DNA of 32,351 nt, taken from positions 1 to 32,351 of the forward strand of contig CAXHAT010000084.1 in the NCBI GenBank assembly GCA_964014485.1, written 5' to 3'. This stretch comes from an uncultured Deferribacteres bacterium (GTDB lineage: Bacteria > Zhuqueibacterota > Zhuqueibacteria > Zhuqueibacterales > Geothermadaptataceae). The notes beneath the pieces are model-generated. The model had not been told where the DNA came from and made no database searches. It saw nothing but the letters and a program-made list of their open reading frames with translations. The position numbers and the translations under genes are program-made. Shown piece after piece: positions 1,283 to 10,043 of this stretch. The stretch's first letter is position 1; each line of letters begins with the position of its first letter.

Positions 1283-1479
1283 TTCACTACCTGACACTTT
1301 TTGTATAGGCTTCTATAACTGGCGAAGAAGGCCGGGATTGTCATGCTGGAAGCATCTTTTTTGATCCGACCCTTGAACTTTTGAGCATGACCTGCACTGG
1401 GCGATAACAAAGATTCCTGCAGAATGACAAAACGAGGCCTTTCGAAAATGCAGTTCACAAAAAAGTGTCAGGTAGAGAG
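1283..1479. mobile_element. MITE-like element, family A copy 1 (contains the 93-bp core at 1338-1430)
   Basis: 16-bp perfect inverted repeat CTACCTGACACTTTTT (1287-1302) / AAAAAGTGTCAGGTAG (1460-1475). Flanked by an 8/9 direct repeat TTCTTTCAC / TTCTTTTAC. Homologous copy at 21283-21485. Confidence 0.85.
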
Positions 1480-1534
1480 TTCTTTTACTAAAAAGACCGC
1501 CCTTTCAAAACTCAAATTGTCTCAATTCCTATTT

Positions 1535-1987
1535 ATGAACATCCATAAAATCATGGCTTCTTGCGCCATATTTTCAATGCTGGCCTGTCAATCGCCGCAA
1601 TCGCAGTCCGGCGTCAAGGACGGACTATTGAAAGTGCGTTATGAAGATGAGAGCGAATTAGAGAGCCTGCGGCAAAGCGGCGCTCAAATTATTGTTAAAG
1701 AAAAAGATTACGTGGTCGTTCGCCTGACGAGCGAAGTCGCTGTGCAGAACATTGTTGGAGAAAAAATCTCCGAAAGCGACTTGGTGCAGCGTCTGGTTTA
1801 CATTGCTTTGAAGGACTCCGGCGACGTACAAAAAATCGTCGATACTGGCCTGGATTTGTGGGAAGTCAAGGGAGATACGGCGATTGCTCGGGCTTTTGAT
1901 CTTTACATTGAAGAACTGCGAAAAGCCGGTTTTTTCGTAAAGGTCGTCGAAGAAAATGCGGGGATGAAAAAAGGGGAGCAAGAATGA
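1535..1987 (+). CDS. Lipoprotein with M14-propeptide-like repeats
   Basis: ATG 1535 gives MNIHKIMASCAIFSMLAC (lipobox LAC). Two related segments: LKVRYEDESELESLRQSGAQII and LVYIALKDSGDVQKIVDTGLDLWEVKGDTAIARA...IEELRKAGFFVKV. ATGA overlap with the next gene. Confidence 0.75.
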   Translation: MNIHKIMASCAIFSMLACQSPQSQSGVKDGLLKVRYEDESELESLRQSGAQIIVKEKDYVVVRLTSEVAVQNIVGEKISESDLVQRLVYIALKDSGDVQKIVDTGLDLWEVKGDTAIARAFDLYIEELRKAGFFVKVVEENAGMKKGEQE

Positions 1988-3012
1988 AAACGAGCTTCCC
2001 CGCGATTTTCAAAAGAATCGGATTTGCCGCAGTCTGCGCTCTGCTTTTGAGTGCGACGCAATGCGTTCCCGGCGGCGGCGGCCCGACTGAACCGGACGCC
2101 GGGCTGTACCACACTTTTGCCGAAACTGAGGCTGCGCTCCGACAACTGGCGCAGGACCATCCGGAAATCGCGCAACTCGCCTCGATTGGGAAATCAGTGG
2201 AAGGACGCGACTTGTGGGCGATAAAAATTAGCGACAATGTCGCAACTGACGAAGCTGAGCCGGTCATTGTCTTTACGGGTGCGCACCATGCCAGGGAGTG
2301 GATTTCCGTTGAAACGCCGTTGATGTTGAGCGATCATTTGGTCAAAAATTATGATTCCGATGCGAACGTCGCCGCGCTGGTTGACGGAGCGGAAATTTGG
2401 ATTGCGCCGATGGTCAATCCCGACGGGCACGTCTATTCCGTTAGCACGAATCGACTCTGGCGCAAGAATCGACGCGACAACGGCGACGGAACGTTCGGCG
2501 TTGACCTGAACCGAAACTACGGTCATAATTGGGGCGGCCCCGGCGCTTCGAGAGACACTTTTTCCGATATTTATCGCGGCCCTTCGGCGTTCTCCGAGCC
2601 GGAAACGCAGGCGATGCGTGATTTTCTGGATCGAGAACAACCGGCGGCGCTGGTTTCTTACCACAACTTCAGCCAACTTGTTCTTTATCCGTGGGGCACG
2701 ACGAGCGATCCGGCGCCGGATGAAGCGCTTCTGCAAAATTTGGCGACGGCCATGGCTGACCGAATCAAGGCTGTTCACGGACAGAATTATACGCCGCAGC
2801 AATCGTCCCAACTCTATCTCGCCAGCGGCGACACGACGGACTGGTTGTACGCGCTGCTTGGCGTTCCCGCTTTTACGATTGAGCTTCGGCCGCGCGGCAG
2901 TTTTCCAGGATTCGAACTACCTGAAGACCAAATCCAACCGACTTTTGAAGAAAATCTTCCCGCCGCCTTGTACTTAATTGGGTGGGCGATTGGACAAACG
3001 ACAACGCTTTGA
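1984..3012 (+). CDS. M14 zinc carboxypeptidase (carboxypeptidase T-like), exported, possibly a lipoprotein
   Basis: HHARE zinc motif, NPDG, RKNR, GVDLNRNY, FSEPET, SYH and FTIELRP (catalytic Glu). N-terminal signal ending ATQC. GGGGAG RBS. Confidence 0.93.
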   Translation: MKTSFPAIFKRIGFAAVCALLLSATQCVPGGGGPTEPDAGLYHTFAETEAALRQLAQDHPEIAQLASIGKSVEGRDLWAIKISDNVATDEAEPVIVFTGAHHAREWISVETPLMLSDHLVKNYDSDANVAALVDGAEIWIAPMVNPDGHVYSVSTNRLWRKNRRDNGDGTFGVDLNRNYGHNWGGPGASRDTFSDIYRGPSAFSEPETQAMRDFLDREQPAALVSYHNFSQLVLYPWGTTSDPAPDEALLQNLATAMADRIKAVHGQNYTPQQSSQLYLASGDTTDWLYALLGVPAFTIELRPRGSFPGFELPEDQIQPTFEENLPAALYLIGWAIGQTTTL

Positions 3013-3019
3013 GCAAGGT

Positions 3020-3604
3020 ATGCAGGGAGAAACGCTAACACAAAAATTCTGCCGATTCTTGCTCCGTTTGCTCGGTTGGAAGGCGGTCGGCAAAACGCCG
3101 GATTTGAATAAATACCTGGTCATCGCCGCTTACCACACTTCGAATTGGGATTTTCTCTATTTCTTGCTCGTGCGCGGCGCTTTGCAGCTTGACGTAAACT
3201 TTTTGGGTAAGCACACGCTTTTTCGCTGGCCGCTGGGCGTATTCATGCGGAAGATCGGCGGCGTTCCGATTGATCGCAGCGCCCCTCGTAATTTTGTCGA
3301 AAATGCAATCGACGCCTTCAAAAATAATCAAAAGCTTGCGCTCTTAATTGCGCCTGAAGGAACGCGCAGCTTCACCAAGTATTGGAAAACCGGATTTTAT
3401 TACATCGCGACGGGAGCTAATGTGCCTATCGTTATGGGTTTTGTGGATTATGCGAAAAAGCGCGGGGGGCTAGGCCCGCTATTCTACCCGACGGGAGATA
3501 TTGAAGCGGATTTTGAAGCTTTCCGAGAATTTTACGCGGACAAAAACGGTAAATTTCCGGAAAAGAACAGCCCGCCGATGTTGCGAAAAGCAAAAGCTGA
3601 TTGA
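3020..3604 (+). CDS. Lysophospholipid/glycerol acyltransferase (PlsC-like)
   Basis: HTSNWD (HX4D) and APEGTR motifs. ATG 3020 lies just after the M14 stop. Confidence 0.9.
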   Translation: MQGETLTQKFCRFLLRLLGWKAVGKTPDLNKYLVIAAYHTSNWDFLYFLLVRGALQLDVNFLGKHTLFRWPLGVFMRKIGGVPIDRSAPRNFVENAIDAFKNNQKLALLIAPEGTRSFTKYWKTGFYYIATGANVPIVMGFVDYAKKRGGLGPLFYPTGDIEADFEAFREFYADKNGKFPEKNSPPMLRKAKAD

Positions 3605-3700
3605 GAATTTTCTAAACAGGATTGTTTCAAAGTTACACGCTAATTTTACATTGATACGAAATTGGCCGCAATTTTTCTGAAAATCAGGCCGTGGAATTTA

Positions 3701-3716
3701 TGGCACGGTAATCGCT
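3701..3716 (+). promoter_or_regulatory. Sigma54 (-24/-12) promoter
   Basis: TGGCACGGTAATCGCT: TGGCAC-N5-TCGCT with exact GG-N10-GC spacing, in an intergenic region. Predicted +1 near 3727. Confidence 0.7.
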
Positions 3717-3726
3717 TAAGCATAGG

Positions 3727-3798
3727 GCAACTCTCTCCTCCTCAAAATGAGCATGACAAGCCCCGACGTTATGGATGACGACGGGGCTTTTCTTTTTT
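3727..3798 (+). ncRNA. Candidate sigma54-dependent small RNA with an anti-SD tract
   Basis: Lies between the sigma54 motif and an intrinsic terminator. Contains CTCTCTCCTCCTC (3731-3743). No complete ORF with an RBS fits inside the predicted transcript. Confidence 0.55.
3758..3798 (+). terminator. Rho-independent terminator
   Basis: AAGCCCCG-a-CGTTA-tgga-TGACG-a-CGGGGCTT followed by TTCTTTTTT. Confidence 0.8.
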
Positions 3799-3873
3799 GC
3801 ACCCGTCCTCGTTCAGCGTTTCGCCATTCACTTGCGACTCTTGCAGCGCAACTCGTCGAATTCCAGGAATTAC

Positions 3874-3914
3874 AAAAAAAAGCAAACCCGCCTGAAATCA
3901 GGAAGGTTTGCTTT
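3874..3914 (-). terminator. Rho-independent terminator for the S8 peptidase gene
   Basis: GCAAACC..CCTGA/TCAGG..GGTTTGC hairpin preceded by A8 on + (U-tract on -), about 145 bp downstream of the S8 stop. Confidence 0.7.
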
Positions 3915-4021
3915 GGTATTGGAGATGAGAAGCTTGATCCAGGCGCCTCAAAGGCGCGCCGCTTTTAACGGCTCATTTATTTCCAATCCGGCCATGGCCT
4001 CTATGTGTGAGGTTACGCTTC

Positions 4022-4049
4022 GTAGAGACGCGATGCATCGCGTCTCTAC
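4022..4049. repeat. GTAG-type REP palindrome
   Basis: Perfect 28-bp palindrome GTAGAGACGCGATGCATCGCGTCTCTAC, 9 bp beyond the S8 stop codon. Confidence 0.85.
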
Positions 4050-4058
4050 AATATGGCC

Positions 4059-7000
4059 TTATTTCAACAACAGCATTTTATTCGTCTGAACGAATTTCTT
4101 CTCGCCGTAAACCGCCTGGATTCGATAGACGTACATGCCGCTGGCGACCGCCGCTCCGGCTGCGTCTCTCGCATTCCATTCAACGCTATAAAAGCCCGCT
4201 TCCTGCGCTTCGTCTTGCACCAGCGTTGCGATTCTTTGTCCTACCGTGTTGTAAATCTCCAACTTTACTTGCGCAAACTCAGCCAGTTGGTAGCGAATGG
4301 TCGTTGTTGGGTTGAAGGGGTTCGGATAATTGGCTTCAAGCCCAAATTCAGCGGGGAGCGCTGAGACCACAATTTCGTTACCTGCGACCTCAACTTGGGC
4401 GGAAGCGAGCGACATTTTTTCGCCTTGAAGCGTATAAACGCGCTCGTTATCTCTAACCGAAGTTCTGAAGCTTGCGGTCGCTTCCACGATTCGAAGCTCT
4501 GAGGCAACCCCGGCTTGCGCTGACTTTTTCGTGCGTAAATCAATTTCTAACAAGACGCCGTTTTTCGAAAGTCCCTTTTCTGACTTGGCGAAACCGCCGA
4601 AGCGCAAGAGGCTCAAACTCTCTTCTTGATCATTTAAGACGTCTTCAAAGCGATGAATCCGGTGTGCAAGCTGAAAATCTTCTGGCGTTGCGCCAACCCA
4701 ACGAACATCAGCGATTTCGAACGTCGCATCGTCGAATTCAACATCGCCGCCAAAGGCGTAGACGCCGTTTTCGAGCACGTCTCCGGAAACAACGACTTGA
4801 ACCGCCGTCAATCCTGAGTTCGCGACGCTCGCTTTCTCGATGTGCATCAATAAATCTGGTTGGCCGTGTGCAATTGGCGAGACGTTTTTGGCTAGAGACT
4901 CAGACTCCTCGACCGGAACCCAGCTTAAATTCGCATCGCCGAGCACGACGGCGAGAAAATCCTGGTCTTTCTTGCGAGACCTGAGATTTGGATAAAGATT
5001 GCCAACCGGCGTCATTTTCCAGGAGTCCGCCGTCTCGTTAATGTCAAAAGCTGCGGGGTAAGCCCGCCACTCGAACGGTTCGAAAGCGCCAACCAGGCCC
5101 AGAAAACGGTCAAATATTGCCGTCGCGTCCGCCAAGTTGAGCTCTCTGTTTTGATCAACGTCCGAGGCCAGCTTTTGCCCGCCGGAAAGCGTTTCCGGAT
5201 TTTGCGTGCCAAGAAAAGCGACCAGTGCGTCGGTCGGGTTTACTGCAAAACCGCGTCCGCCGCTCACACGGCGCAGTTCGAGGGTGTAGTCTTTGCGAGC
5301 TTCAATATTTTCAAGCGAGTACGCTCCTTTAGAATCGGTCTTCAATTCACCGACGCTTTCATCGCCTGACTTGAGCAAAACGTCCAGGCCCTGAACGGGC
5401 TTTGATTCGCTTGGGCTGCCGTCCGTCCTGCTGTAATGAACCACGCCGCCAATTGACAGCTCATTAAAAACCGTGGCTTTGCCGTCAATGCCGATGGTCA
5501 CCAATGAGCGCGCCGTAGGGTCGGCGGAAGACAATTCATTGTATTCAAAGGTTGCCATGTCGCCGGTTTGCGCACCTTGGCTAATCGAAAAATGGAGCGT
5601 AGCGAGAACGCCGGAATCGGACACGGGATCAACGCCGAATCCGCTCAGAGCCATTCTCAAGCTATCGCTGCTCACAGGATTAACTTCAAAAGTTTGATCT
5701 GTCAGAATGTCGCCCTTGGTAAACCCCACATAACTCAGCAAGCCGCCGGTAATTTTCATGGCGGCGCCCAGGACTGCAACGCTCAACGTGGAATCATTAA
5801 TCGTGAGGTAAACAGGAACGTCCAGTTGGTCGCCGACGAGGCCTTCTATGTCGTCCGGCGTCGAGATAATGACTTCTGTTTGTGCGACTTTGAGAAACAC
5901 CGGAATTCTAACGTCCGAAGTGACCGGATCATTTGAAGAGACGTTTATCACAGCTTCGTAATCGCCTTCTTCAAGCGCTGAAGCGTCCGCGGTGACCAGA
6001 ATTTCCGCAGATTCTCCGGCGGGCACAACGCCCTGATTCGGCGACTCAGTCAACCAGCCGCCGGAAGCGACGGCAAGCCCGAACGGCCCGTCTGTTTCCG
6101 GAACGGAAGTTTCAGCGATCACTTCGAATTCGTTCCCTTCCAAATCGACGCGAGCAATGTAGTCTCTGACGTTGTCCGCCCAATAGACATGCCCTCTGTT
6201 GCTTTCAATCGCGAGTGCGAGGGGATTGTCGTCCGCGCCAAGCTGTTTGACCAGGGTCGCGTTCTTGGTCTCAGTGTCAAACGATTTAAGTGCATTATTG
6301 AAGCTGTCTACAAAGTACACTCTGTTTGACTCGGGATCATAGCCTATTCCGCGCGGCCCGTTAAGCCCGGTTTCTATACATATTTCAACTTCGGAGCCGT
6401 CCAGGTTCGCTCTGCTGACGCGATCGACGTTTTGTTCCGTCCAGTATATTTTTCCATGAACCAGATCCAGCGCGATTCCCCAAGGGCTGGAAATAACGTC
6501 CGGCTTTTCATTGGCAACGCTCGGTTTTTCCGCGGCCGTCACTCCGGCGGGATCATTCGACAACCCGTTCGCACCGTTGATGATTACTTCTTCATTGCTG
6601 CCGTCCAGATTCGCACGACTAATAACATTTGCTGAGAAATCCGCCCAATAAAGTTTTTGATTCACAGGGTCGATGGCAACGTCCACCGGCGTAAACAAAC
6701 CGTCGACGACTGTGACAAGATCGCCGCCGTCCATGGCGCTTGACTTGATTGCGCCTTCATCCGGACTGGCCCAGTAAATACGCCGACCGATTTCGTCAAT
6801 TGCAATGCCAAGAAACGTATTCGGCGTAACCAGAATAGAGCTAACCGTGCTTCCGTCAAGGTCGCTGCAATTGAGCGTATCTTGTACGCTCGTGTTGACG
6901 CCCCAGAAGACTGCATGATTGGCGATCTGTGCGTTTACGCTTTGCTCTTCATCACCCACGCTGAAAACAAGGTCGCTGCCTCCGTTGTTTGCGATTGTAA

Positions 7001-10000
7001 GCGCAGCAAAAGTTGAGTCGCCGGGCTTGGCGAAGAGGTTAATCTCAGCCGGAGAAACGTCGATGATCGGCGGGCTAACCGCTTCGCCGCTTAACGGAAG
7101 CTCAAATTGGGGTTGATCGGGATCGTCGCTGAAAAACGTCAAGTTTGCTGAATATTCGCCTGCATTTATTGGCGCAAACGTTACCTCGCCTTTTCCCGCA
7201 TCACCGGGAGCAAGCGTTGTGTCGGAAAATTGAAAGCTAAAAACCGCGTTGTTGGAGGTGATTTCTGAAATGTTTAGAGTATCCGTTCCGGCGTTCTCAA
7301 CTTCAAAAGGCAACGTCTCTGAAAATCCGACAAACACTTCCCCAAAGTTGAGTTCGCTCGGCGCTACGCCGATATCAGGAGCGTTTTCGACGGTGAGCAA
7401 GGCTCTGACAATTGCCTGCGGCGTATCGGGATCATTACTTTCGACGATGACGTCTGCTTGGTAAACGTCGCCGAACAGCCCGGCGGCGTCGAAAGTGACT
7501 TCAATGTTTTCCATCCCGTTGGCCGGTACCGTGCCTTCATTCGGCGTCACCGAGATGAACGGAAGATTCGCGTTCGTAATCAAAACGTCGTCAAAAAACC
7601 ACCCCGGGAACAGGTTGCCAATACCGTCTTGGGTGTCAAAATAGAAGCGTACTTGAATCGTCTCGCCCGTGAATTCGGAAATATCCAGACTGGTCATAAT
7701 CCAGCCGCCGCTGTTGCCGCTGGGCGCTTCGCTAATGTCGCCGCGTAAAGGAATCCAGCTCGTCCCGCCGTCGGTGGAAATGTCAACCATGCAGCGGTCA
7801 AATCCGGTTTCCGTGTTATAGTTTTCAAAAAATTGCAAAGTGATTGGAGCGAGGGCGCCGGAAAGACTGATCTCAGGACTGACCGCTGCAGCGCTGATTC
7901 GAGAACCGGTGCTATAATTTCCGGTCGCTTCGTCTGCACACCACCAACTGGTTTCCGGGCTATTGAAAGAAGAGTTGGTTGGATGCCAAAGTGCGTCCGT
8001 CGTGTTATTGTAAAGTTCAATCGTCCAGCCCTGATCTTCTCCTTCAAAATCATCATAAAAAACCGTCGCTTCAGCACCGGCGTTGGCTAACACGCTTCGC
8101 AGCAAAGGCGTCGCTTTCGACGGTCCCATTTGTACTGGGGCGATGTTTTGCAACTGCCTGACGCCGTCGCGTCGCGTCTTTTGAGAAGGCGTCGGCAAAA
8201 CCTGCACGTGCAAATTGTCGCCTTGCGCCGCGACCAATCTTACAGAGGCTTGTTCGTCAAAATCCGGGATGACAAAATCCAGCGTGCCTTCGCCGACGTT
8301 TGCAATTTCAAACATATCGAAGGCTTTTTCCCCGGTGAATAACATCGCTTCAAGCGTGTCGGGTTCGACCGCAATTTGAGGCGCGCCTAACGTTGAGCCG
8401 TCCACGACGTTTGAAATATCCGAACCGTTACCTTGTTCGTCAAAAACGCGTATTGCGAAAAAATAAGGGGTGCTAAAGTCGAGTCCAGTGACTTTAAATT
8501 CTTCCACCGTTCCTGCCTCTTGCGGACTCGGCGGATTTGCGGCCTTAGACGCTTCATCAAAGTTTCCTTCAAAAATCGGCTGCGTCGAAAAACGCACGTC
8601 GTAGGATTTCGCCGTACCGTCGGAAGTGTCATCGCCTGACGCCGTCCACGAAAGAACCATCGTATTTGAACCTGGGGAAACGATCTGCAGGTCAGAAATT
8701 GCATCTGGCGGAATGCTGTCTTGTTCAACGGCCATTAGCGCATTGTAGGCGTTAATTCTGCCTCCAGTGACCGTGATCCCGTCCAGGGCCGGCAGCGGAT
8801 CAACCGAAGACATGATCGCTTCCTTGACTTCTCCCGGAGCAAGATTCGGCACATAGGACAAGAGCAAGCTTGCAAGTCCGGCGACATGCGGCGAGGCCAT
8901 CGAAGTGCCGCTGATCACGCCGTAGGAGTTGTTTGGGAAAGTGCTCAAAATGCTCGATCCCGGCGCGCCAACGTCGACGGAGGTTAAACCGAAGTTGGAA
9001 AAGCCCGACCGGTTGTCGTTATGATCGGTTGAAGCGACTGAAATGATGTTGTCGAGAGCGTAATTGGAAGGATAATGCGGGAAGTTGTCGTTGTCCGTGC
9101 CGTCGTTTCCGGCTGCGGCAATAAACAACATGCCGGCGTCGCCGGAAGCCTGAATCACGTCGAGAAGCGCTTGTTCGAATGGCCCGCCGCCCCAACTATT
9201 GTTGGTTAGATGCGCGCCCATTGCGGTCGCATACTCGACGGCGGCGATGGCGTCAGACGTCGAGCCGGAACCGGAAGCGTTTAAAAACTTGAGCGCCATG
9301 ATTCGCGCTGACCAATTCACGCCCGCGCCGCCGACGCCGTTGTTGCCAACCGCCGCAGCCGTTCCCGCGACGTGCGTGCCGTGGCCGTTGTCGTCGAAAG
9401 GATTGTTGTCGTTGTTGGCGAAGTCCCAACCGTGAACATCGTCGATAAATCCGTTGTCGTCATCGTCAATGCCGTTGTTGGGGATTTCGCCGGGATTCGT
9501 CCACATGTTCGCGGCCAAATCTTCATGCTCCCAATCCACTCCGGAATCAATGACGCCGATAATCACTTCACTGCCGCCGGTCGTAATGTTCCAGGCTTCC
9601 GGTGCATCAATGTCTGCGTCTTCCGTGCCGCCGGTCTGGCCAGTGTTGTGCAAACCGTAATATTCGGGAAATCGCGGATCTTCAGGGAAAGTCTGTGAAT
9701 CAGCGGCCGCATTTTCAAACGGGCCGATAGCGCGGACGATGTAGTCAGGGTGGGCGTATTCAACAGACGGGTCGTTCTGCAGCAGGGAAATGGCGCGCGC
9801 GGTTGTTGTGTTTGAAATTTCAATCACCTCAGCGCCGATCAGTTTAAATTTTTTCACCGATCTTGCATTGAAAGCTGAGAGCGTGGCGTTAATTGTATTT
9901 TCAGCGGCGCTTGGCTTAAACTTGATGATCAAGCGGCCTTCGATGTAATCCGGTTCGGGGCGTTGCTGTGCAAATACAAATTGGGTGAGAAAAAAAGAAA

Positions 10001-10043
10001 GCGCGCAAAAAAGCAATGTTCTTGGAAACAAACGACTCTGCAT
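4059..10043 (-). CDS. Large secreted S8 subtilisin-like peptidase with FN3, MAM-like, Ig-like, YWTD propeller, cohesin, dockerin-like and FlgD-Ig/T9SS-like C-terminal domains
   Basis: Signal peptide. Triad motifs VIDSG, HGTHVAG and GTSMASPH. Six YW-type blades (VFWG, IYWAS, LYWAD, IYWTE, VYFVD, VYWAD). Dockerin-like DVDQNRELNLADA. C-terminal NYPNPFNPTTTIRY...KMLLLK. CAGGAGG RBS. Confidence 0.93.
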   Translation of the reverse strand: MQSRLFPRTLLFCALSFFLTQFVFAQQRPEPDYIEGRLIIKFKPSAAENTINATLSAFNARSVKKFKLIGAEVIEISNTTTARAISLLQNDPSVEYAHPDYIVRAIGPFENAAADSQTFPEDPRFPEYYGLHNTGQTGGTEDADIDAPEAWNITTGGSEVIIGVIDSGVDWEHEDLAANMWTNPGEIPNNGIDDDDNGFIDDVHGWDFANNDNNPFDDNGHGTHVAGTAAAVGNNGVGGAGVNWSARIMALKFLNASGSGSTSDAIAAVEYATAMGAHLTNNSWGGGPFEQALLDVIQASGDAGMLFIAAAGNDGTDNDNFPHYPSNYALDNIISVASTDHNDNRSGFSNFGLTSVDVGAPGSSILSTFPNNSYGVISGTSMASPHVAGLASLLLSYVPNLAPGEVKEAIMSSVDPLPALDGITVTGGRINAYNALMAVEQDSIPPDAISDLQIVSPGSNTMVLSWTASGDDTSDGTAKSYDVRFSTQPIFEGNFDEASKAANPPSPQEAGTVEEFKVTGLDFSTPYFFAIRVFDEQGNGSDISNVVDGSTLGAPQIAVEPDTLEAMLFTGEKAFDMFEIANVGEGTLDFVIPDFDEQASVRLVAAQGDNLHVQVLPTPSQKTRRDGVRQLQNIAPVQMGPSKATPLLRSVLANAGAEATVFYDDFEGEDQGWTIELYNNTTDALWHPTNSSFNSPETSWWCADEATGNYSTGSRISAAAVSPEISLSGALAPITLQFFENYNTETGFDRCMVDISTDGGTSWIPLRGDISEAPSGNSGGWIMTSLDISEFTGETIQVRFYFDTQDGIGNLFPGWFFDDVLITNANLPFISVTPNEGTVPANGMENIEVTFDAAGLFGDVYQADVIVESNDPDTPQAIVRALLTVENAPDIGVAPSELNFGEVFVGFSETLPFEVENAGTDTLNISEITSNNAVFSFQFSDTTLAPGDAGKGEVTFAPINAGEYSANLTFFSDDPDQPQFELPLSGEAVSPPIIDVSPAEINLFAKPGDSTFAALTIANNGGSDLVFSVGDEEQSVNAQIANHAVFWGVNTSVQDTLNCSDLDGSTVSSILVTPNTFLGIAIDEIGRRIYWASPDEGAIKSSAMDGGDLVTVVDGLFTPVDVAIDPVNQKLYWADFSANVISRANLDGSNEEVIINGANGLSNDPAGVTAAEKPSVANEKPDVISSPWGIALDLVHGKIYWTEQNVDRVSRANLDGSEVEICIETGLNGPRGIGYDPESNRVYFVDSFNNALKSFDTETKNATLVKQLGADDNPLALAIESNRGHVYWADNVRDYIARVDLEGNEFEVIAETSVPETDGPFGLAVASGGWLTESPNQGVVPAGESAEILVTADASALEEGDYEAVINVSSNDPVTSDVRIPVFLKVAQTEVIISTPDDIEGLVGDQLDVPVYLTINDSTLSVAVLGAAMKITGGLLSYVGFTKGDILTDQTFEVNPVSSDSLRMALSGFGVDPVSDSGVLATLHFSISQGAQTGDMATFEYNELSSADPTARSLVTIGIDGKATVFNELSIGGVVHYSRTDGSPSESKPVQGLDVLLKSGDESVGELKTDSKGAYSLENIEARKDYTLELRRVSGGRGFAVNPTDALVAFLGTQNPETLSGGQKLASDVDQNRELNLADATAIFDRFLGLVGAFEPFEWRAYPAAFDINETADSWKMTPVGNLYPNLRSRKKDQDFLAVVLGDANLSWVPVEESESLAKNVSPIAHGQPDLLMHIEKASVANSGLTAVQVVVSGDVLENGVYAFGGDVEFDDATFEIADVRWVGATPEDFQLAHRIHRFEDVLNDQEESLSLLRFGGFAKSEKGLSKNGVLLEIDLRTKKSAQAGVASELRIVEATASFRTSVRDNERVYTLQGEKMSLASAQVEVAGNEIVVSALPAEFGLEANYPNPFNPTTTIRYQLAEFAQVKLEIYNTVGQRIATLVQDEAQEAGFYSVEWNARDAAGAAVASGMYVYRIQAVYGEKKFVQTNKMLLLK

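Follow-up and report, generated by a model that had tools for sequence, protein, structure and literature searches.

The segment between two convergent genes of an uncultured Zhuqueibacterota bacterium raises the question of whether it encodes a stand-alone small RNA (sRNA), transcribed from its own sigma-54 promoter and directed against ribosome-binding sites, or is only the 3' end of the operon that precedes it. The window analysed here is the whole stretch of 32,351 nucleotides of contig CAXHAT010000084.1. A sequence-only reading had proposed that this segment holds a complete mini transcription unit of about 72 nt, with a -24/-12 motif, a transcription start (+1) near 3727, a CU tract and an intrinsic terminator. 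Inspection of the sequence agrees with this proposal, the motif, the tract and the terminator all being present within 100 bases.

Upstream of the unit lies an acyltransferase gene (PF01553; 2978-3604, plus strand), which ends an operon that also contains an M14 carboxypeptidase gene, and an S8 protease gene (4059-10043, minus strand) is convergent with it. A terminator hairpin with a U tract on the minus strand at 3866-3914 (fold -21.1 kcal/mol), separate from the terminator of the unit, serves the S8 protease gene. The putative promoter stands about 100 nt beyond the acyltransferase stop codon, in a spacer with a GC content of 33% as compared with 50% for the genome. A 104-codon open reading frame (ORF) at 3775-4089 was rejected as a gene; its start lies inside the terminator, without a ribosome-binding site. 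Other features of the neighbourhood include a REP-like palindrome at 4023-4048, immediately 3' of the S8 stop codon, and the domain composition of the 1994-residue S8 protease, which carries fn3, MAM-like, Ig-like, propeller, cohesin and C-terminal FlgD-Ig domains. With regard to 1424-3012, an unannotated 187-residue ORF without a Pfam match lies directly 5' of the M14 carboxypeptidase gene in 30 of 80 metagenome loci, so that the two form a conserved gene pair. In none of these 80 loci with M14 relatives (at most 70% identity) was the acyltransferase gene or the element found. Five relatives of the acyltransferase (41-48% identity) are followed by different sequence, and a sixth is cut off.

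The host genome (8.4 Mb, 97% complete) is the sole member of its genus in the genome set. Four of the five window proteins are singletons in 90% clusters, and the fifth belongs to a cluster of two members; because the window proteins are nearly alone in such clusters, there is no close relative in the collections for a conservation test. The rpoN gene, whose presence the proposed promoter presupposes, was found by genome search (E = 2e-132), together with 54 matches to the activator domain PF00158, 43 of them strong (E < 1e-50) and none on the contig of the window. No match to Hfq was detected in the host genome, and the 3' tail of its 16S rRNA is canonical.

The candidate promoter (3701-3716, plus strand), a TCGC variant of the sigma-54 -24/-12 motif, is composed of TGGCAC (3701-3706), five bases and TCGCT (3712-3716), with a GG-to-GC spacing of 12, and from its distance to the -12 element we take the +1 to be G3727. 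Scored with a matrix built from 33 other intergenic sites of the genome, the motif reaches 16.5 bits, within the training range of 11.9-21.9; seven of the 33 training sites score lower, and six of the 33 carry the TCGC variant. Only 6 of 5000 shuffles of 3605-3757 reach this score. In the window as a whole the motif occurs once, as it also does in 20 of 100 shuffles, and CTCCTCC occurs once against 2.0 expected. Among 349 strict terminators of the genome, the unit in the window is the only one with such a sigma-54 site within 200 nt on the same strand, and none has one on the opposite strand; as a rough estimate, about 0.4 promoter-terminator pairs per genome would be expected by chance. The single parts are unremarkable, and their combination and register are moderately beyond chance.

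Two palindromes precede the promoter, an imperfect one of the TGT-N9-ACA type at 3623-3637 (about 104-90 nt before the +1) and a weaker copy at 3644-3658, two helical turns downstream of the first. The pair, 21 bp apart and extending from 104 to 69 nt 5' of the predicted +1, is the only such pair in the genome for a motif that was itself drawn from this locus, and it is a plausible fit to an activator-binding site (enhancer). No clear match to the IHF consensus was seen at the locus.

The predicted RNA would extend over 72 nt (3727-3798, plus strand). Its 5' arm (3727-3757), mostly single-stranded in prediction, contains the CU tract CTCTCTCCTCCTC at 3731-3743, the anti-Shine-Dalgarno (anti-SD) core, which starts 4 nt downstream of the predicted +1 and precedes a run of A. 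The arm leads into the intrinsic terminator (3758-3798), with a 13-bp stem carrying one mismatch (3758-3789), a UGGA loop (3772-3775, within AUGGAU at 3771-3776) and a U tract (3788-3798). The predicted folding energy of the RNA is -22.4 kcal/mol (z = -3.4), supplied almost entirely by the terminator, and the CU tract is predicted to be mostly unpaired according to the accessibility of the 72-nt RNA. The hairpin was missed by a stock terminator scan, probably because of its internal A-A mismatch. In Rfam 15, no match at the gathering threshold was found in the window, in keeping with the earlier statement that the RNA could not be assigned to a known family; the best plus-strand match over the unit, located mainly on the terminator, reaches 22.6 bits where 55 would be required, and the weak matches in general cover terminators only.

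The proposal that the CUCCUCC seed is complementary to ribosome-binding sites holds in general terms, the seed being accessible and the 16S tail canonical. With 6218 genes from ORF calls made for this analysis, pairing of the arm over at least 10 contiguous bases was seen for 41 of 6218 initiation regions, as compared with 6 of 6218 coding windows, and the longest pairing of the seed with some initiation regions comprises up to 13 contiguous base pairs. The leaders matched best are those at C31:8026, C92:12016, C26:22598 and C25:37445. Among the 1470 regions bearing a Shine-Dalgarno sequence, the arm matches 36, and 100 shuffles of its flanks match 8.9 on average and at most 28. Natural controls match as many regions as the arm in 2 of 39 cases for coding CTCCTCCT sites and in 1 of 23 cases for mirrored real initiation regions, and in an energy-based target count 8 of 30 shuffled arms exceed the real one. 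In general, the arm mirrors strong initiation regions well, and target predictions from this single genome are generic. The S8, eno, M28 and STAS genes, which had been named as examples of complementary sites, do not stand out as targets: their complementarity extends over 5-8 bases, and none of them is among the regions with at least 9 contiguous bases.

Homologues of the unit were searched for at increasing phylogenetic distance. In 9 genomes of the family and 19 of the order, none was found by BLAST, pattern search or covariance model; BLAST over 29 order genomes returned only short terminator-type matches, and a loose pattern matched order genomes about as frequently as its reversed control. 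In the search for promoter, CTCCTCC and terminator in relatives that the sequence-only reading had suggested, the strict pattern of promoter plus CTCCTCC gave 9 matches in 8 of 125 class genomes, and a terminator follows only at the window. A seed pattern with one mismatch allowed gave nine matches outside the host genome, none with a terminator. The promoter plus the first bases of the RNA matched in 72 of 167 phylum genomes, and none of the 50 loci inspected was convincing. The best of these matches, L306 in a family mate, was rejected as it lies antisense to a coding gene, which indicates that matches of this kind can arise by chance. Viral contigs yielded five pattern matches, none with the design, and a scan of all species yielded eight matches, about the number expected by chance, five of them coding. 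A one-sequence covariance model gave eight weak hits in 150 phylum genomes.

Among the 167 phylum genomes, the sole candidate homologue is L265 in genome G107, from the same class as the host. This unit, about 60 nt long, stands alone between genes; it has a sigma-54 motif, a CU tract and a terminator, and its first six bases are identical to those of the window RNA in the same register. Without gaps, 21 of 34 bases agree between the two, as compared with at most 19 for 585 other sigma-54-like sites, and the covariance score of L265 (27.3 bits, E = 0.046 per genome) is weak though the best of the 150 genomes, both figures applying to a locus selected out of many genomes. No counterpart of L265 was detected in its family mate, and a two-sequence model of the window RNA and L265 recruited generic terminators only. 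L265 may be a homologue of the window RNA and is regarded here as a candidate only.

In the host itself, a possible sibling RNA (G000:C47:11968-12085; L370:1471-1588) has 20 of 23 bases in common with window positions 3721-3743. Two hairpins and a U tract follow the match (z -5.3), a sigma-54 motif is absent, and the sequence 5' of it contains an inverted repeat of 8 bp as well as a MITE-like element. Two further candidates that combine a sigma-54 motif and a terminator, about 160 and 200 nt long, are present on host contigs G000:C12 and G000:C1.

A phylum-wide search for the design pattern gave matches in 25 of 167 genomes, as compared with 11 hits for the reversed control. Eleven of the pattern matches form a single family, conserved in another class of this phylum and characterised by a sigma-54 promoter, a CU tract and a terminator. 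These RNAs of 70-80 nt have a core that reproduces 10 bases of the 16S 3' tail, with a second C run in addition. Dyads lie near -125 and -105, and in the terminator 5 of 11 pairs show two-sided, covarying changes. A model of this family found four more strong members (78-89 bits) as well as a subtype, and 14 of the 15 main-type members are divergent from valS. The loci (L060:1402-1503, L062-L069, L071, L384-L386 and L394) fall in phylum families f21-f23, and with the subtype included the valS-linked family is present in 11 of 12 f21, 5 of 5 f22 and 1 of 3 f23 genomes. The subtype (L387:1501-1604, L395:1501-1587 and L400:1127-1227) has the sigma-54 motif, a different terminator and a position away from valS. 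The four loci of the family that were tested are absent from Rfam.

The window RNA was considered as a member of this family and rejected, scoring 17.2 bits on the family model; the host genome contains no convincing member, and nothing similar lies upstream of its valS gene. The two have in common a sigma-54 promoter, dyads about 20 bp apart, a short leader, an unpaired CU core and a terminator; they differ in the core, the terminator and the dyad spacing, and only the family is fixed beside valS. As judged from its conservation, the valS-linked family shows that the design of sigma-54 promoter, CU tract and terminator is real and selected within the phylum, and its case is stronger than that of the window RNA.

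Similar arrangements were also observed elsewhere. Outside the phylum, L195 and L197 have a promoter, a CU tract and a hairpin. Three loci, L195:1501-1601, L197:1455-1547 (minus strand) and L194:1501-1640, combine a sigma-54 motif with CTCTCCTCCTC and a hairpin, L194 without a U tract, and their hosts are unrelated (a beta proteobacterium, a member of Kofleriaceae and a delta proteobacterium). The L195 element scores only 12.9 bits on the window model, and a sample of 120 other genomes of its order revealed no copy of it. In addition, another sigma-54 mini-RNA with C-rich runs, about 75 nt in length, is conserved in two genomes of one genus (L165:1501-1605 and L166:1476-1576, both on the minus strand), two genes downstream of a sigma-54 activator-like gene.

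Taken together, the best explanation, to which we assign a rough probability of 0.6, is that the unit encodes a stand-alone, signal-induced sigma-54 sRNA that would mask ribosome-binding sites by direct pairing of its anti-SD tract. In this mechanism, an activator is predicted to bind the two palindromes at 3623-3658 and, once bound, would switch on the sigma-54 motif at 3701-3716 to produce the 72-base RNA. Through its unpaired CU-rich arm, this RNA would bind other mRNAs at their ribosome-binding sites and repress them at the level of translation. As no Hfq was found, pairing would depend on a long seed. The same 3' end could also be generated through read-through from the upstream operon. 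From the sequence we infer that the promoter is used, where transcription starts, that the palindromes act as an enhancer, and that the RNA pairs with mRNAs in the cell and represses them. The conserved valS-linked design elsewhere in the phylum is counted in support of a stand-alone sRNA. The earlier idea of an anti-SD translational repressor is consistent with the rpoN gene, the activators, the plausible enhancer and the accessible CU tract; the neighbouring genes as special targets and the suggested CsrA role were not supported.

The unit could instead be merely the 3' untranslated region (UTR) and terminator of the upstream operon, with a CU tract that is a common 3'-end feature in the phylum and a sigma-54 motif that is coincidental or silent, which appears rather unlikely. 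The tail might then be released as a 3'-derived RNA, or the tract might be a protein-binding site. Two points that the sequence-only reading left out bear on this: the terminator probably also ends the acyltransferase operon, and CU tracts are common before terminators in the host. The unit is co-directional with the operon, no other plus-strand terminator was found in 3604-3757, and the chance expectation given above would leave room for an accidental promoter. TCCTCC occurs 0-60 nt before 13 of the 349 terminators, mostly without a promoter; the counts are 1 and 2 in the two bins that follow, and its reverse complement gives 5. Promoter-less 3' ends with a CU tract and a terminator also exist in relatives (the orthologous L174 and L176, as well as L263 and L266). 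However, such promoter-less tracts lie about 10-50 nt from the stop codon, whereas the window tract is about 125 nt away from it and close to the predicted +1, and a separate gene is favoured for this reason; moreover, the tandem dyads and the register match of L265 would both need to be accidental. A quite different possibility concerns the other strand, where the CU tract would be the reverse complement of a ribosome-binding site and the plus-strand RNA its antisense. The minus strand does resemble a strong host initiation region, and 2 of the 14 listed cases of a CU tract plus a terminator are ribosome-binding sites of divergent genes. The tiny ORF in question would comprise 25 codons (3723 to 3646), or 4 if it began at a TTG, but its ATG is 13 nt from GGAGG, a spacing reached or exceeded in only 18 of 508 genes, and the peptide has no long hydrophobic run. 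With the S8 terminator blocking read-through and no sigma-70-type promoter found on the minus strand, this explanation is highly improbable.

It is also conceivable, if improbable, that the sigma-54-made RNA pairs with no mRNA and acts as a protein decoy, binding CsrA via the GGA loop or an RRM/S1-type protein via the pyrimidine run. AUGGAU at the hairpin cap, which had been likened to a CsrA/RsmA site, would suit this idea, as would the presence of csrA and two RRM genes in the host genome and the lack of a prominent specific target. Known CsrA sponges, however, carry many GGA motifs, and those of the CsrB/RsmY type have them in loops; the window RNA has a single GGA, located in the terminator loop. 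In addition, csrA adjoins fliW, the gene of CsrA's protein antagonist, and the loop is conserved neither in L265 nor in the valS-linked family. The evidence on these points does not favour a CsrA site at the terminator apex.

Some CU tracts outside the unit are of interest in themselves. L174:1501-1590 and L176:1501-1588 are the 3' ends of PD40-repeat genes in two order-level relatives, in which the CU tract and the terminator are kept. In the host (G000), CU tracts stand between stop codon and terminator at C8:15060, C54:27715, C305:6852, C119:1316 and C139:3063; the C8 tract follows a sigma-54 activator gene, the C54 and C305 tracts follow response-regulator-like genes, and these may be 3'-UTR-derived RNAs.

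For a stand-alone sigma-54 sRNA of the kind preferred here, several known systems offer comparisons. The Vibrio Qrr1-5 RNAs are stand-alone sigma-54 sRNAs under the control of an enhancer-binding protein that pair with mRNA leaders, depend on Hfq and have four stem-loops with specific seeds; by comparison, the window has no Rfam match and the host no Hfq match. GlmY of Escherichia coli has a multi-hairpin fold. GlmY is reported to have its own sigma-54 promoter, which needs the enhancer-binding protein QseF/GlrR (PMC7073468); it acts as a decoy for the RapZ protein and shows no sequence match to the window RNA. FlmE (CJnc230) of Campylobacter jejuni is described as an RpoN-dependent RNA of about 90-98 nt with a single-stranded anti-SD stretch that represses mRNAs at the ribosome-binding site; RNase III releases it from the flgE mRNA, and it has two stem-loops that flank a 12-nt seed (PMC11187230). 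The window RNA differs in being a predicted primary transcript with only a 5' arm and a terminator, and there is no Rfam link between the two. NfeR1 (alpha-r14, cuckoo) of S. meliloti is independent of Hfq and silences initiation regions with an anti-SD seed of the CCUCCUCCC type; as described, it has three hairpins with the motif in each loop and a promoter without a sigma-54 signature (PMC10746234). RNAs of this group have 2-4 hairpins, each with CCUCCUCCC in the loop, whereas the window RNA has a single strong hairpin, one linear tract and a sigma-54 motif. Finally, CT-rich insulators in sigma-54 promoters are reported to act in cis through an anti-SD CT run on a downstream site within about 25 nt in a read-through RNA (bioRxiv 10.1101/086108). 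In the window, the tract lies after the predicted +1, a terminator comes next and no credible gene follows, and the cis-insulator model does not fit for this reason. By analogy, the window RNA would resemble FlmE and NfeR1 in its action and GlmY in its transcription.

No description of the window RNA was found in the literature on sigma-54 anti-SD sRNAs (main texts of mainly open-access papers), and a literature search for the phylum returned no sRNA study; a paper on the phylum likewise says nothing on sRNAs. The mechanism itself is well known, and the window RNA is probably a new instance of it. A broader interpretation, which we consider distinctly doubtful, is that several minimal sigma-54 RNAs arose independently in this phylum, the window RNA among them, each carrying hardly anything beyond a terminator and a mirror of the strongest start signal in the cell, and serving to damp strongly initiated mRNAs. 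Upon a signal, such an RNA would compete with ribosomes without Hfq across a whole class of mRNAs, many of them for exported hydrolases, and would not be gene-specific.

If the window RNA is real, it would represent a sigma-54-controlled RNA of an uncultured phylum that pairs apparently without Hfq. Its minimal design appears repeatedly, in unrelated sequences, both within this phylum and in other phyla. This recurrence makes it testable how generic anti-SD seeds acquire specificity, a question for which the valS-linked family is the better object.
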